From IMG/VR virus record IMGVR_UViG_2606217117_000011: 5,154 nt of DNA; one strand, given 5' to 3'. The position numbers and the translations under genes are program-made. The stretch comes from a virus. Lineage: Duplodnaviria; Heunggongvirae; Uroviricota; Caudoviricetes. Below the pieces are notes generated by a model. The model did not search any database. It was not told the origin of the DNA and saw nothing but the letters and a program-made list of their open reading frames with translations. Position 1 is the first letter of the stretch. Each line of letters begins with the position of its first letter. Positions 1 through 5,154 of the stretch are shown here, in pieces.

Positions 1-812
1 TCAGACGAACCGATGACTGGATGGATGGCCGCCGCAGTCGTCACACTGATGATACGGATGTGCTTCTCCGTATACACCATGTTATCGGAGAGCTGCCCAC
101 GTATGGTTATCGTCGGGTATGGGCGCTGCTTCGCAGACAGGCAGAACTTGATGGTATGCCTGCGATCAATGCCAAACGTGTTTACCGGATCATGCGCCAG
201 AATGCGCTGTTGCTTGAGCGAAAACCTGCTGTACCGCCATCGAAACGGGCACATACAGGCAGAGTGGCTGTGAAAGAAAGTAATCAGCGATGGTGCTCTG
301 ACGGGTTCGAGTTCCGCTGTGATAACGGAGAAAAACTGCGAGTCACGTTCGCGCTGGACTGCTGTGACCGTGAGGCACTGCACTGGGCGGTCACTACGGG
401 CGGCTTCAACAGTGAAACAGTACAGGACGTCATGCTGGGAGCGGTGGAACGCCGCTTCGGCAACGAGCTTCCGGCGTCTCCAGTAGAGTGGCTGACGGAT
501 AATGGTTCATGCTACCGGGCTAATGAAACACGGCAGTTTGCCCGGATGTTGGGGCTTGAACCGAAGAGCACGGCGGTGCGGAGTCCGGAGAGTAACGGCA
601 TAGCAGAGAGCTTCGTGAAAACGATAAAGCGTGACTACATCAGTGTCATGCCCAAACCAGACGGGTTAACGGCAGCAAAGAACCTTGCAGAGGCGTTCGA
701 GCATTATAACGAATGGCATCCGCATAGTGCACTGGGTTATCGCTCGCCACGGGAATATCTACGGCAGCAAGCCAGTAATGGGTTAAGTGATAACAGGTGT
801 CTGGAAATATAG
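1..812 (+). CDS. insD: IS2 transposase InsD (OrfB), 5'-truncated by the window edge; stop TAG at 810-812
   Basis: ORF-track protein 21..812 ([40 protein letters not shown]...[16 protein letters not shown]...[31 protein letters not shown]) matches my recollection of IS2 InsD over its whole length. The frame stays open upstream to base 3, so the true start is outside the window. Confidence 0.93.
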
Positions 813-823
813 GGGCAAATCCA
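783..823 (+). repeat. IS2 right terminal inverted repeat (approximate extent)
   Basis: Terminal sequence GGGTTAAGTGATAACAGGTGTCTGGAAATATAGGGGCAAATCCA ends the element. The exact inner boundary of the IR is from memory of IS2 (~41 bp), not computed. Confidence 0.65.
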
Positions 824-1213
824 TCCATTGAGCATTGCCGCAATTTCTTTTGTGGTGATGTCTTCAAGTGGAGCATCAGGCAGACCCCTCCTTATTGCTT
901 TAATTTTGCTCATGTAATTTATGAGTGTCTTCTGCTTGATTCCTCTGCTGGCCAGGATTTTTTCGTAGCGATCAAGCCATGAATGTAATGTAACGGAATT
1001 ATCACTGTTGATTCTCGCTGTCAGAGGCTTGTGTTTGTGTCCTGAAAATAACTCAATGTTGGCCTGTATAGCTTCAGTGATTGCGATTCGCCTGTCTCGG
1101 CCTAATCCAAACTCTTTACCCGTCCTTGGGTCCCTGTAGCAGTAATATCCATTGTTTCTTATATAAAGGTTAGGGGGTAAATCCCGGCGCTCATGACTTC
1201 GCCTTCTTCCCAT
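824..1213 (-). pseudogene. int: Lambda-type tyrosine integrase Int, N-terminal 130 codons only, truncated by the IS2 insertion
   Basis: Minus-strand ORF 737..1213 begins MGRRRSHERRDLPPNLYIRNNGYYCYRDPRTGKEFGLGRDRRIAITEAIQANIELFSGHKHKPLTARINSDNSVTLHSWLDRYEKILASRGIKQKTLINYMSKIKAIRRGLPDAPLEDITTKEIAAMLNG, matching lambda Int residues 1-130 as I recall them. After residue 130 the frame runs into IS2 terminal sequence ([11 protein letters not shown]...), so the catalytic C-terminal domain is absent on this side of IS2. Confidence 0.9.
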
Positions 1214-1409
1214 TTCTGATCCTCTTCAAAAGGCTACCTGTTACTGGTCGATTTAAGTCAACCTTTACCGCTGATTCGTGGAACAGATATTCTCTTCCAT
1301 CCTTAACCGGAGGAGGGAATATCCTGCATTCGCGCACCCATCGACGAACTGTTTCAAGGCTTCTTGGGCGTCGCTGGCGAGCGTTCCACTCCTGAAGTGT
1401 CAAGTACAT
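1191..1409 (-). CDS. xis: Excisionase Xis (72 aa), lambda-type; overlaps the int start by 23 nt as in lambda
   Basis: Protein MYLTLQEWNARQRRPRSLETVRRWVRECRIFPPPVKDGREYLFHESAVKVDLNRPVTGSLLKRIRNGKKAKS matches lambda Xis from memory. GGAG lies about 9 nt upstream of the ATG on the minus strand. Confidence 0.93.
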   Translation of the reverse strand: MYLTLQEWNARQRRPRSLETVRRWVRECRIFPPPVKDGREYLFHESAVKVDLNRPVTGSLLKRIRNGKKAKS

Positions 1410-1704: not shown

Positions 1705-1986
1705 TTAATCATCTATATGTTTTGTACAGAGAGGGCAAGTATCGTTTCCACCGTACTCGTGATAATAATTTTGCACGGTATCAGTCATTTCTCGCACATT
1801 GCAGAATGGGGATTTGTCTTCATTAGACTTATAAACCTTCATGGAATATTTGTATGCCGACTCTATATCTATACCTTCATCTACATAAACACCTTCGTGA
1901 TGTCTGCATGGAGACAAGACACCGGATCTGCACAACATTGATAACGCCCAATCTTTTTGCTCAGACTCTAACTCATTGATACTCAT
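1705..1986 (-). CDS. ea8.5: Ea8.5 protein (93 aa), lambda b2-region gene of unknown function
   Basis: Protein MSINELESEQKDWALSMLCRSGVLSPCRHHEGVYVDEGIDIESAYKYSMKVYKSNEDKSPFCNVREMTDTVQNYYHEYGGNDTCPLCTKHIDD matches lambda Ea8.5 as I recall it. Strong RBS AAGGAG lies 6 nt upstream of the ATG on the minus strand (1993-1998). Confidence 0.88.
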   Translation of the reverse strand: MSINELESEQKDWALSMLCRSGVLSPCRHHEGVYVDEGIDIESAYKYSMKVYKSNEDKSPFCNVREMTDTVQNYYHEYGGNDTCPLCTKHIDD

Positions 1987-2079: not shown

Positions 2080-2600
<521 letters not shown>

Positions 2601-2603
2601 CCC

Positions 2604-2637
2604 GAACCGGACGTGCACCTTTCAGCGCATCCGGCTC
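2604..2637 (-). ncRNA. Group II intron domain V (catalytic hairpin)
   Basis: Minus strand GAGCCGGAUGCGCUGAAAGGUGCACGUCCGGUUC is 34 nt with the AGC triad, a GAAA-type loop and a 2-nt bulge, closely matching the domain V consensus GAGCCGUAUGCGAUGAAAGUCGCACGUACGGUUC. It starts 5 nt after the IEP stop codon. Confidence 0.88.
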
Positions 2638-2642
2638 TCCAT

Positions 2643-4166
2643 TTAAATGCTGGCGAACGCCATTGCCACTTCTGTAAAGCGCGATGTATACGTGTTTCTG
2701 GTCTCCGTCCTCAGATAGGGATTACCTTCGGGTAGCCGCCAGCGGAACAGCTTCTTGCCTTGCCCCACCAACCGGTACAGTATTTCGCCGCTGAGCTTGC
2801 CGTGATTGGTTTTACCAAATAAAACCCACGTTTTGCTCTGACCCGGTTTCGGTGATTTACACCACCACCTCATCAGGGAAGCGATACCTGTACGGTATTT
2901 GCGGGCCAGCCAGTGAGCCAGCTTCCAGAACACGACACGGTCGATATAACTGAAGACTTTGGCCTTAAAATCAACGAACTGATAGAACATGGCCCAGCCT
3001 TTCAGTTTTCGGTTGAGTTGTTCAGCCATATCGACTTTGCTTTCACTGTAGTTGCCTGATAACAGTGCTGTCAGCGATGCGGCGAAGTTTCTGGCTTTCT
3101 CCTGCGGGATCGTTGAGACCACTCGCATCTCGCCATAACGACTGCGTTTGCGAATGATCCTGTGCCCCAGAAAGATAAAGCCGTCATTAACATGGGTGAT
3201 TTTAGTCTTATCCATGTTCAGCCTGAGTTTCAGACTGCCTTCGAGCACACCCCGACACTCCTCCCTGATGGCTTCCGCCTGTGCTTTGGTGCCTTTGACG
3301 ATGAGGACAAAATCATCGGCATAGCGGCAGTACGCCACCGCGGGTTTCCACTGCCAGTTTTCTCTGACCGCCGTACTTCGGCCCCGTTGGATACTGTTAT
3401 TCCAGTACCACCGATCTTTTCTGGCTTTCCCGCTCAGGTAGCGCTCATGCAGGTATTGATCGAACTCATTCAGCATGATGTTCGATAATAGCGGCGATAT
3501 AACACCGCCCTGTGGCACACCTTCACTGGCCGCCCGAAAGAGACCGACATCGATATGTCCCGCCTTGATGGTTTTCCACAGCAGAGTCATGAAACGTGCG
3601 TCACTGATCCTGCGGCGTACAGCCTTCATCAGCAGTCGATGATGTACGGTGTCGAAGTAACTGGACAGGTCGCCTTCAATCACCCAGCGTCCCCGGGTTT
3701 CACCACAGTCTGTGAGCTGTAATTTCACCGTGCGGATCGCGTGGTGGACACTGCGCTCAGGCCGGAAGCCATATGAGAGCGTATGAAAATCACTCTCCCA
3801 TATCGGCTCCATCGCCATCAGCATGGCCCGCTGAACAATACGATCCCGCAACGCGGGGATACCCAGTGGTCGCAGTTTGCCGTTGCTTTTAGGGATGTAA
3901 ACCCGTCTGGCGGGCAAGGGCTGGTAGTGGCCTGAGAGTAATTCATCCCTGAGGATTTGCAGCTCAACAGCCAGTCTGGCCTGTAGCATTGTTTTGTTCA
4001 CGCCATCAACGCCGGGGGTATGGGCCCCCTTTGATGAAAGCGTGATCCGCGCCGCTTCAGCCAGCCATTCTGGTTGTGTTATCAGACGCAGCAGCCGTTG
4101 AATCCGTAGGGACGGATCGGTGACTGCCCATGTGGCAAGCTTGCGTTGCATTTCGCTGATTATCAA
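2643..4166 (-). CDS. Group II intron-encoded protein: reverse transcriptase/maturase (507 aa from TTG at 4166, or 502 aa from the first ATG at 4151)
   Basis: RT motifs are visible in the translation: KLRPLGIPALRDRIVQ (RT1), SYGFRPERSVHHA (RT2), GVPQGGVISPLLSNIMLNEFD (RT4), YCRYADDFVLIV (RT5 with YADD), LNMDKTKITH and GFIFLGHRI (RT6/7), followed by a maturase-like region (RNFAASLTALL...KLKGWAMFY). No Cys/His-rich HNH endonuclease block is seen at the C-terminus. Confidence 0.93.
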   Translation of the reverse strand: MIISEMQRKLATWAVTDPSLRIQRLLRLITQPEWLAEAARITLSSKGAHTPGVDGVNKTMLQARLAVELQILRDELLSGHYQPLPARRVYIPKSNGKLRPLGIPALRDRIVQRAMLMAMEPIWESDFHTLSYGFRPERSVHHAIRTVKLQLTDCGETRGRWVIEGDLSSYFDTVHHRLLMKAVRRRISDARFMTLLWKTIKAGHIDVGLFRAASEGVPQGGVISPLLSNIMLNEFDQYLHERYLSGKARKDRWYWNNSIQRGRSTAVRENWQWKPAVAYCRYADDFVLIVKGTKAQAEAIREECRGVLEGSLKLRLNMDKTKITHVNDGFIFLGHRIIRKRSRYGEMRVVSTIPQEKARNFAASLTALLSGNYSESKVDMAEQLNRKLKGWAMFYQFVDFKAKVFSYIDRVVFWKLAHWLARKYRTGIASLMRWWCKSPKPGQSKTWVLFGKTNHGKLSGEILYRLVGQGKKLFRWRLPEGNPYLRTETRNTYTSRFTEVAMAFASI

Positions 4167-4822
4167 AGGTCTTCACCTCGTTAGGTCAGTTAATTCACGT
4201 CGCAAACACATTCAAACTGCTTCCCTTCGCCATGTAATGGGCTTTCCCCATCGCGGACTACTACGGAAGCTCCGCCAGCCAGCGCGTCATCGGAGCCATG
4301 CCCCCTTAACATCCGTCGCTGACCTTCCCCGGTTTACCTGCCTGGACTCAGGCATACTGAGGAGGCTGCCCGTCGCACTCTTTATCCTTGCTTGCCGCAA
4401 GTTGGCAGAAGTCAGCAACGCAAGCGTGATAGACGCTGCTGCCCCGGTGTTTCGCATACATGTCAAAACACCTTCGACCGGCAGTGCTTACGTATCACTG
4501 CCAGTTCCTCCTGCACGGCCTGTCAGATCACGTAGGCCGTGGTGACGTTTTCAACCCACAGAGGCGGATTAACGGGTTCATGTTCTTCAGCCTTTCAGTA
4601 CTTAACCTTGAGGATCATCTCGGCTTAGTGATCTCGCCTCAATCCCCGTTGTCAGCGGGTTACATCACCCTGCGGGCATGCCGCAGGTCACTGCCGCTCA
4701 GGTTCTCCACCGTCACACCCGGTGGGATTGTTGGGTTTCTCATCGTGAGTTACCGGCTCAATATTCCAGACAGACTCGCGGTTCATTTAAGCATCCATGC
4801 CCGCCCTGAACTCCGGGCACAC
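4167..4822 (-). ncRNA. Group II intron 5' ribozyme portion (domains I-III and the 5' part of domain IV)
   Basis: Lies between the intron 5' end (GUGUG, 4818-4822 on minus) and the IEP start. Contains the EBS1-bearing hairpin CAGUG-AUACGUAAG-CACUG. The plus-strand ORFs in this interval (4120..4545, 4460..4831) have no recognisable protein features. Confidence 0.6.
4487..4492 (-). other. Putative EBS1 (5'-CGUAAG-3') in a hairpin loop of intron domain I
   Basis: Perfect Watson-Crick complement to the last 6 nt of the 5' exon (IBS1 5'-CUUACG-3', window 4823-4828 on minus). About 330 nt from the intron 5' end, flanked by the 5-bp stem CAGUG/CACUG. Confidence 0.55.
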
Positions 4823-5154
4823 CGTAAGTAAAATCAGCCACCCACAGCTGGTCAGGTCGTTCTGCCACGAACTGACGGTTTACGCGGTCGCCTGCGGCAA
4901 CGGCTTTCCGGCTGATGGTCGTACGGACCTTTTTACCCCGGAGAACACCGGCAAGTCCCATAACCGCCATGAGACGTGCCACAGTGCATCTGGCCACTCT
5001 GATACCTTCCCGTAACAACTGACGCCAGACTTTACGCACACCGTATACCTTGTGATTTTCATCGTATACGCGCTGTATCTCTTTCTTCAGCCAGTCATCG
5101 CGCTGCGCACGGGCACTGCGTTTATCCGGATGATGTCGCTGTTGCTGACAGTGG
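4823..5154 (-). CDS. IS3-family transposase OrfB, 5' exon portion (N-terminal/middle region; continues beyond the window end)
   Basis: Minus-strand frame is open from the window edge: HCQQQRHHPDKRSARAQRDDWLKKEIQRVYDENHKVYGVRKVWRQLLREGIRVARCTVARLMAVMGLAGVLRGKKVRTTISRKAVAAGDRVNRQFVAERPDQLWVADFTY, then the intron. The ORF track shows only the part from an internal GTG (4758..5039) and reads through into the intron. Confidence 0.85.

Follow-up and report, generated by a model that had tools for sequence, protein, structure and literature searches.

Two EBS1-like hairpins in domain I of the class A group II intron E.c.I4, and a possible alternative guide for 5' exon and target recognition

We examined a window of 5,154 nucleotides (nt), the whole stretch of viral DNA that was analysed (IMG/VR record IMGVR_UViG_2606217117_000011). 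On its minus strand it carries a group II intron that is almost certainly a full-length copy of the known Escherichia coli element E.c.I4 (bacterial class A), inserted in the transposase gene orfB of an insertion sequence (IS) of the IS629 family. To our knowledge, all described group II introns use one exon-binding site 1 (EBS1) for recognition of the 5' exon. Domain I of E.c.I4 contains two EBS1-like hairpins, hairpin 1 and hairpin 2, the second lying 32 nt downstream of the first in the same junction. Their loops present different 6-mers and each natural insertion site is well matched by one of them, which led us to propose that the two hairpins are alternative functional EBS1 guides, either loop being able to dock the 5' exon or DNA target; from the sequence comparisons reported here we regard this as moderately probable.

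The first-pass annotation of the window had pointed to a perfect 6-bp pairing between EBS1 and its exon partner, intron-binding site 1 (IBS1), and its coordinates are exact: the last six bases of the 5' exon, 5'-CUUACG-3' (exon -6..-1; window 4828..4823, minus strand), are the exact complement of CGUAAG at 4492..4487. The 5' splice site that it saw supported by this pairing is equally correct: the exon ends at 4823, the intron starts with GUGUG at 4822 and the reading frame is restored at the exon junction. CGUAAG occupies intron nt 331-336, in agreement with the claimed position in a hairpin loop about 330 nt into the intron. The hairpin, described as CAGUG...CACUG, is present in the minimum free energy (MFE) fold but is longer than described: hairpin 1 (4478..4504, minus strand; fold and covariation) has a 9-bp stem, CUGGCAGUG/CACUGCCGG, and a 9-nt loop, AUACGUAAG (4495..4487), of which CGUAAG (EBS1a) fills the last six positions. 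Within the first 660 nt of the intron, CGUAAG is the sole perfect Watson-Crick 6-mer partner of exon -6..-1. The window match is not significant alone, as a perfect CGUAAG occurs in 11.7% of dinucleotide-preserving shuffles of the 660 nt, and this frequency would fit a functionless chance complementarity. The significance of loop 1 comes from the comparison with relatives.

Relatives of the intron-encoded protein (IEP) are many, with 67-100% identity. In species-representative (one-genome-per-species) data we found 493 tblastn-confirmed class A-like loci, with at least 120 more in metagenomes; the loci sampled were 80 from species representatives, 19 from viral contigs and 120 of those from metagenomes (L numbers below are our locus labels). 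A covariance model aligned 168 class members, the two loops were compared among about 120 relatives, and permutation tests were run on 124 distinct exon/loop combinations. A single-column scan of all domain I columns against the exon positions was too noisy, and per-sequence helix mapping and helix-level tests were used. In the 56 distinct exon plus intron rows of alignment A3, the six pairs between loop 1 and the exon were formed in 77.4% of cells, against 71.9 +/- 1.4% in shuffles (0/500), and sliding the register lowered pairing to 20-46%. Permutation of exons among introns gave z = 5.3 for paired cells and 32 perfect 6/6 matches by loop 1, against 14.0 +/- 2.9 expected. Lineages retargeted to unusual exons changed loop 1 to match: exon CCAAAC is met by GUUUGG (L189), CUUUUG by UGAAGG (L141) and CGUUCG by CGAAUG (L080), and L019 is also among the sites matched specifically by loop 1. 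In L074, whose host gene encodes an IS66-family transposase (PF03050), exon GCUAUC is met by loop 1 GAUAGC; here EBS1, EBS2 (AAGUA for UACUU) and the base 5' of EBS1 (U, with +1 A) were changed in concert. The hairpin is also conserved, and in most of the class by far its loop has exactly 9 nt. The conservation, the loop-exon covariation with its loss in slid registers and the matching changes in retargeted lineages effectively refute chance complementarity. We concluded with high confidence that 4487-4492 acts as EBS1 at the IS629 site.

The location of hairpin 1 agrees with this assignment. A 29-sequence consensus fold of domain I contained 128 pairs, 92 of them with compensatory changes, and placed hairpin 1 as the first of three hairpins enclosed by the distal Id stem, which pairs GCAGGAGG (4514..4507) with ACUUCUGC (4412..4405) and spans 4405..4514 on the minus strand. 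This stem appears in both the consensus and MFE folds and has many compensatory changes (pairs 327-334/440-447 of alignment A2). The third hairpin (hairpin 3, 4413..4441, minus strand) presents alpha' UCACGC (4429..4424) in its loop; the alpha partner is GUGUGA (4718..4713), the loop of an Ib-type hairpin at 4706..4726 (minus strand). Both assignments come from loop-loop covariation: this alpha-alpha' kissing contact is 93% paired, against 78.2 +/- 1.5% in shuffles, and all six of its pairs show compensatory changes. The architecture of domain I is thus established, with its nested helices and its alpha-alpha' contact. Hairpin 1 lies in the distal Id arm directly upstream of the alpha' hairpin, and because it adjoins that hairpin it is where EBS1 is expected, as the first-pass annotation had supposed; the consensus fold neither places EBS1 elsewhere nor assigns the hairpin to a different conserved helix.

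Hairpin 2 (4446..4472, minus strand; fold and covariation) has the form GGUGUUUUG-ACAUGUAUG-CGAAACACC, with a 9-bp stem that covaries and a loop at 4463..4455. The last six bases of the loop ACAUGUAUG are UGUAUG (EBS1b, 4460..4455). Hairpin 2 was present in all sampled relatives. Loops 1 and 2 share the 9-nt consensus A-N-A-N-G-U-A-N-G, and both are exactly 9 nt long in 157 of the 168 aligned members; positions 1 and 3 are at least as conserved in loop 2 as in loop 1. The alternative that hairpin 2 is alpha' was rejected, as alpha' mapped to hairpin 3 and a scan for a conserved intramolecular partner of loop 2 found none above 65%.

Loop 2 also tracks the exon. Its pairing with exon -1..-6 reached 81.3% of cells in alignment A3, against 74.6 +/- 1.4% in shuffles (0/500) and 19-51% in slid registers, and permutation gave z = 5.9. 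The two loops cover for each other. Of 28 cases in which exon -1 is left unpaired by loop 1, 22 are paired by loop 2 (null 0.51, P < 2e-4); of 17 left unpaired by loop 2, 11 are paired by loop 1 (null 0.41, P = 0.0016); and at -6 the failure of one loop is always covered by the other (7/7 and 9/9). When the score of the better loop was summed over sites, z rose to 8.7, and exon cells paired by neither loop numbered 58, against 97.8 +/- 5.5 expected (z = -7.2). The window site itself gives six Watson-Crick pairs with loop 1 and 5/6 pairs with loop 2, whereas at another E.c.I4 site, ending in GAUAUUACGUAUA (..ACGUAUA), 6/6 pairs are formed with loop 2 and 4/6 with loop 1. Most of the difference between the loops lies opposite exon -1 and -5, where the coding motif is least constrained. 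Insertion occurs just 3' of the codons for a conserved D-(I/F/V)-T-Y motif in the IS629-family transposase, which we take to hold the first catalytic Asp of the DDE triad of IS3-family and retroviral integrases. Exon variation falls at -5, the wobble base of the Thr codon, and at -1, the first base of the following codon. Opposite the wobble bases of the Tyr and Asp codons (-2 and -11) most introns have G, which accepts both C and U.

A rival explanation is that hairpin 1 is the single EBS1 and hairpin 2 an old tandem duplicate with a structural or protein-binding role; loop 2 would then be complementary to exons only because the loops have N-G-U-A-N-G in common and the target motif is conserved. 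This explanation would account for the perfect match of the window site to loop 1, for the clear perfect-match enrichment of loop 1 beside a marginal one for loop 2 (22 against 16.3 +/- 3.1), and for the fact that both candidate delta compensations (L074 and L012) lie in loop 1. It does not account for the excess of loop 2 pairing over shuffles and permutations, or for its pairing specifically where loop 1 fails. Several targets that depart from UAY fit loop 2 but do not fit loop 1: exon CAAAAG by GUUUUG (L203), CCUGGC by GCCACG (L030/L051), CCUUUU by GGAAUG (L035/L037), and the site of L208. L219 and the E.c.I4 copies L155/L162 are also at targets matched specifically by loop 2. Among related introns, one specificity may be found in either position: UGUAGC, which fits AGC-UAC-A exons, is in loop 2 of L219 and in loop 1 of its relative L172, and UGUAGG occupies loop 1 in L131 but loop 2 in the related L114, while the IS66-retargeted L074 lineage changed both loops to ..UAGC. 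Moreover, the two 6-mers were identical in none of 100 distinct introns (5.1 +/- 2.1 expected, P = 0.004). We therefore consider a single EBS1 in hairpin 1 unlikely.

The same difference between the loops bears on the idea that both bind the same exon at different steps, for example one in forward RNA splicing and the second in the reverse reaction with DNA. The conserved design of the two loops, and the fact that each of them tracks the exon, speak for such a scheme, but obligatory pairing by both should make their sequences converge. Besides never sharing a 6-mer, the two loops carry the same base opposite exon -1 in 5/55 introns only, and at most sites full pairing is by one loop only (perfect matches by either loop 53, by loop 1 32 and by loop 2 22, with at most one site perfect for both). 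This alternative is accordingly rated as improbable. A reversed assignment, in which the class would use hairpin 2 as its real EBS1 and hairpin 1 would be an accessory, could cite the larger number of cells paired by loop 2 (588 vs 572), its better fit at 59 sites vs 47, and the slightly stronger conservation of its positions 1 and 3. It is contradicted by the five retargeted sites specific to loop 1 (L189, L141, L080, L074 and L019), by the six Watson-Crick pairs of loop 1 at the commonest E.c.I4 site and by the stronger perfect-match enrichment of loop 1, and we give it very little credence.

Several points weigh against two alternative guides. For loop 2 taken alone, the enrichment of perfect 6/6 matches is marginal (P = 0.05), and loop 2 is unpaired at -5 in 10 of the 11 E.c.I4 flank types. 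Both loops are held to N-G-U-A-N-G because the target ACN UAY N is highly conserved, and each helix has only two to three informative positions. Phylogeny does not enter the permutations, and joint inheritance of intron and IS inflates their significance; similar z values were obtained with one site per distinct loop pair, and the slid-register controls retain relatedness. We know of no structural precedent for two hairpins docking alternately into one active site. In the literature covered we found no description of a second or alternative EBS1; early class A structure papers, which lie outside that coverage, may show it. With these points taken into account, E.c.I4 with an EBS1, an EBS2 and an alternative second guide is in our judgement fairly probable as the best explanation overall.

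Next to EBS1, the second exon contact could also be identified. The first-pass annotation had sought an EBS2 partner for exon bases AUUUUA, which is the wrong register, and had reported none that was convincing; an EBS2 does exist, although its pairing at this site is imperfect. EBS2 is ACGUC (intron nt 275-279; 4548..4544) in the loop UGAAAACGUC of a GGU/ACC hairpin (4541..4556, minus strand; covariation), and its partner IBS2 is 5'-GAUUU-3' (4831..4835, minus strand), that is, exon -13..-9, comprising the Asp codon and the first two bases of the next. When the exon complement of each sequence was mapped onto the alignment, this site recurred in 43 of 58 sequences, as a conserved GAAAYGUC motif that lies some 55 nt upstream of EBS1 and is looped out by a short hairpin, whose 3-bp stem covaries (UA 19/CG 21). 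Across the class, EBS2-IBS2 was 94.3% paired, against 90.4 +/- 0.6% in shuffles (0/500) and 4-56% in slid registers, and four of its five pairs showed compensatory changes, for example UCAUC/GAUGA in L036, AAGUA/UACUU in L074 and the ACGUC introns in GAYGU exons. In the window, the helix has three Watson-Crick pairs, one G.U wobble and one C x U mismatch (4/5 paired), because IS629 encodes D-F and not D-I or D-V at this place. We are confident in the assignment of EBS2 to ACGUC at 4548..4544. A first candidate chosen from the window only, GAGAUCA (nt 188-194), was dropped as it lies within the conserved Ic helix, and two RNAalifold pairs in the EBS2 loop (G-C and A-U), which never vary, were excluded from the model.

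A contact at the 3' exon can also be proposed. The base 5' of EBS1, A330 (4493, minus strand; loop 1 position 3), is a candidate delta, and the +1 U of the 3' exon (2552, minus strand) a candidate delta'/IBS3. Loop 1 position 3 is A in 79/85 class members and +1 is U in 79/85; only L074 (U with +1 A) and L012 (U with +1 G) are informative. By analogy with the delta-delta' pairing of IIA introns, the conserved A probably pairs with the +1 U. The alternative would be a IIB-type EBS3 elsewhere in domain I, for which the near-invariance of +1 makes covariation uninformative.

Taken together, the contacts suggest the following scheme. Exon -6..-1 pairs with CGUAAG of loop 1 and exon -13..-9, imperfectly, with ACGUC; in splicing these contacts would fix the 5' splice site, and by analogy with RmInt1 the same exon contacts would guide reverse splicing into a DNA target by the endonuclease-less IEP; in group II introns generally, these pairings serve both splicing and reverse splicing. 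At the IS629 site loop 1 would be in use, and at the ..ACGUAUA site loop 2. That class A introns, E.c.I4 among them, carry two interchangeable EBS1 hairpins in one RNA, and hence two target specificities, is on the sequence comparison slightly favoured. Since the loops differ most opposite the variable exon positions, together they would accommodate a larger part of the synonymous and flanking variants of the catalytic-site motif, and the two specificities may be adapted to the wobble and flanking bases of the codons for the conserved catalytic-Asp motif in DDE transposase genes. The two hairpins would thereby widen the range of transposase genes open to intron invasion.

The target sites of class A follow a narrow pattern. 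Nearly all readable 5' flanks end in GAY-NTN-ACN-TAY-N, the codons D-(I/F/V)-T-Y, with insertion after the first base of the following codon, and the spliced exons of relatives encode continuous rve integrase-core domains. All 11 distinct flanks of E.c.I4-type introns are at a D-x-T-Y motif, L168 having CCGACA instead of the usual UAY. Among 5426 complete E. coli genomes, 2347 contain E.c.I4, in most instances with an identity of at least 99%, and the intron places number 5170. Junctions were counted with 51-nt queries (E <= 1e-12, seeding only across the junction), as 90-nt queries cross-matched related IS types. The IS629-type junction (..GAUUUUACUUACG) was found at 2860 places in 1416 of the 5426 E. 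coli genomes, the ..GAUGUGACCUAUA junction at 1315 places in 1154 genomes, the ..GAUAUUACGUAUA junction at 324 places in 206 genomes and the ..GACAUAACCUACA junction at 54 places in 47 genomes. The IS629 type is thus the commonest E.c.I4 junction in E. coli (2860/5170 places), and of the 11 flanks it is the only one with which the E.c.I4 loops give six Watson-Crick pairs in loop 1. Both results agree with the first-pass reading of the window site as a cognate homing site. The imperfect EBS2-IBS2 helix means that it is not a perfect match overall, and many of the copies counted must be IS-borne duplicates and not independent homing events.

Some sites stand apart from this pattern. L074 (IS66-family transposase) and L062, in a gene with a weak rve match (..LSDFTY/F.., the slash marking the insertion point), are outside IS3-type genes. 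The flanks of L155 are chimeric, with an IS911-like 5' exon (..VWCGDITY) and an IS629 3' exon (STWQGFVYVAF..), and L064 and L067 have a common 3' flank and different 5' flanks; such chimeric flanks suggest homologous recombination between intron copies in different IS elements. At L206:3988-6380, one class A intron follows another head to tail, the model matches being 2272 nt apart, so that the first intron, with its 3' end (..CUCUUACUCUAC), supplies the "5' exon" of the second. This pair could be a tandem insertion or the homing of an intron beside an intron. The L022 intron, from Marinobacter (after ..ACCUACUG), is inserted one base further downstream than L012 (after ..ACCUACU) in a similar D-I-T-Y-C context, and the L022 site is poorly matched by either loop. 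Class A-like introns were also found in Photobacterium, Legionella, Sphingomonads, Endozoicomonas and metagenome-assembled genomes (MAGs) of Desulfarculaceae. Class A is small in the literature covered, which treats it as a few near-identical introns, with three members in one account (PMC3552965) and a "paucity" noted in another (PMC7306698); the class A-like introns found here greatly exceed the two to three members cited, both in number and in taxonomic spread. Four short contigs (L004, L007, L011 and L014) with IEPs 86-99% identical to that of E.c.I4 are assigned to Microbacterium, Chryseobacterium, 'Candidatus Halomonas stercoripullorum' and a Bacillota MAG, and these assignments are more likely to stem from contamination or faulty binning than to show true hosts.

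The identity of the intron is well supported. It extends over 2553..4822 (minus strand; 2270 nt), starts with GUGUG at 4822 and ends with CUAC through 2553, in agreement with the group II 5' GUGYG and 3' AY ends, and is identical at 2266 of 2270 positions (99.8%) to NC_009801:4848623-4850892, which is listed as E.c.I4-2b in the supplement of Leclercq and Cordaux (PMC3522654). Domains V and VI (2553..2639, minus strand; end ...CUUACUCUAC) match Rfam RF00029 at 64.9 bits (gathering cut-off 40; E = 1.4e-11). Rfam returned no family for domain I of class A, its matches being RF00029 and two domain V models. The IEP (2643..4166, minus strand) has 507 amino acids and a TTG start; its Pfam matches are RVT_1 and GIIM only, and it scored 340.9 bits (cut-off 300) against NCBIfam TIGR04416, the group II reverse transcriptase/maturase model. 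No HNH or endonuclease (En) family was among its Pfam or NCBIfam matches, and the protein ends about 80 residues past the maturase domain. This agrees with the published description of the E.c.I4 IEP as lacking an En domain and belonging to bacterial class A (PMC3552965). The intact open reading frame, the E. coli copies at 99% identity or above and the occupation of several distinct IS targets suggest indirectly that the element may be competent for splicing and retrohoming. E.c.I4 is reported to home into "various IS3 elements" including IS629, IS911, ISEc16 and ISEc31 (PMC3522654). The pairing in the window is an ordinary feature of a known element, and its annotation is correct but routine.

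Further observations were made on the intron. In E. coli K-12, the gene annotated as ykfC ("reverse transcriptase domain-containing protein") corresponds to nt 1-1764 of E.c.I4 with 99.7% identity and is thus a truncated copy. Elsewhere in the species (matches H1, H5, H20 and H21, from several genomes), E.c.I4 matches in two pieces separated by a transposase of the IS4-like IS421, a three-level nesting of mobile elements. The 3' strand of domain VI (2553-2562, minus strand; CUUAC-UCUAC, invariant in the class) contains CUUAC, the pentamer of exon -6..-2, which is also complementary to GUAAG of loop 1; as this CUUAC is invariant, covariation yields no evidence for its importance.

The host gene is divided by the intron into a 5' exon (4823..5153, minus strand; Pfam HTH_21), which is the upstream part of the IS629-family (IS3 family) orfB, and a 3' exon (2080..2552, minus strand; Pfam rve, rve_3 and rve_2, NCBIfam transpos_IS3), which is the remainder. 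The 5' exon ends with the codons D-F-T-Y and the first base of the next codon (...GAUUUUACUUACG at 4823), and removal of the intron restores the orfB frame (...ADFTY/VSTW..., the slash marking the exon junction). The IS629-family label follows the RefSeq name "IS3-like element IS629 family transposase" at identical junctions. Elsewhere in the window, an IS2 TnpB/orfB (NCBIfam PRK09409, 620 bits; 21-812, plus strand) is inserted in a lambda-type integrase gene (737-1213, minus strand), of which the N-terminal arm-binding part alone is left. The motif of IS2 itself, WCSDGFEF, is not a class A target. Lambda-like xis (1409..1191) and ea8.5 (1986..1705) are intact and lie downstream of the intron-bearing orfB. 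The IS2-truncated int together with the intact xis and ea8.5 places the intron-bearing IS629 in the int-xis-b region of a decayed lambdoid prophage.

In comparison with known systems, the window intron is the same element as E.c.I4/S.f.I1 (class A of E. coli and Shigella), in the same IS3-element hosts and with no difference. What is added to it is comparative support for EBS1 and EBS2, plus a second EBS1-like hairpin. As in exon recognition by IIA and IIB introns (Ll.LtrB, ai5-gamma, RmInt1), a 6-bp EBS1-IBS1 helix is formed by a terminal loop of the distal Id arm beside alpha', and a 5-bp EBS2-IBS2 helix by an EBS2 about 55 nt upstream, with exon -7 and -8 left unpaired between IBS2 and IBS1. 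Unlike canonical IIA and IIB introns, class A has two tandem EBS1-type loops, and its EBS2 is in the terminal loop of a 3-bp hairpin. The candidate A directly 5' of EBS1 and the conserved +1 U, which show only a small amount of variation, would resemble the delta-delta' of IIA introns (Ll.LtrB), and an IIA-like delta arrangement fits the label "IIA/B hybrid" given to class A (PMC7923331).

E.c.I4 resembles RmInt1 (class D) in its endonuclease-less IEP, its life in insertion sequences and its target recognition by EBS-IBS pairing, and differs in that RmInt1 has another IEP and RNA class and a single EBS1. For RmInt1, the likely mechanism is reported to be reverse splicing into transiently single-stranded DNA at replication forks (PMC8914252). 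EBS divergence among paralogous copies expands the targets of Thermosynechococcus introns (PMC2882425) and RmInt1 relatives (PMC4615759). An escape from target-site saturation through EBS sequence change is common to those systems and class A; there the guides are in different copies, whereas in class A two guides are apparently in one RNA. The EBS2a-IBS2a pairing, an additional RNA-DNA contact in IIB1 introns (PMC8643678), is a precedent for extra target contacts that were overlooked in well-studied introns, with the difference that EBS2a makes a simultaneous contact with a different target segment and hairpin 2 would be an alternative copy of EBS1. A two-guide E.c.I4/class A intron would, as far as we know, be the first of the group II introns to carry alternative guides within one RNA.

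If this proposal is correct, a ribozyme with two alternative EBS1 loops would show a retroelement extending its target range by a new route, and would raise the structural question of how two hairpins share one active site. The arrangement might also provide a design principle for dual-specificity targetrons (gene-targeting introns). On this view class A would be a widespread clade specialised on the coding motif of the transposase catalytic site, and not a curiosity of E. coli and Shigella, whose members parasitise, and possibly restrain, insertion sequences.

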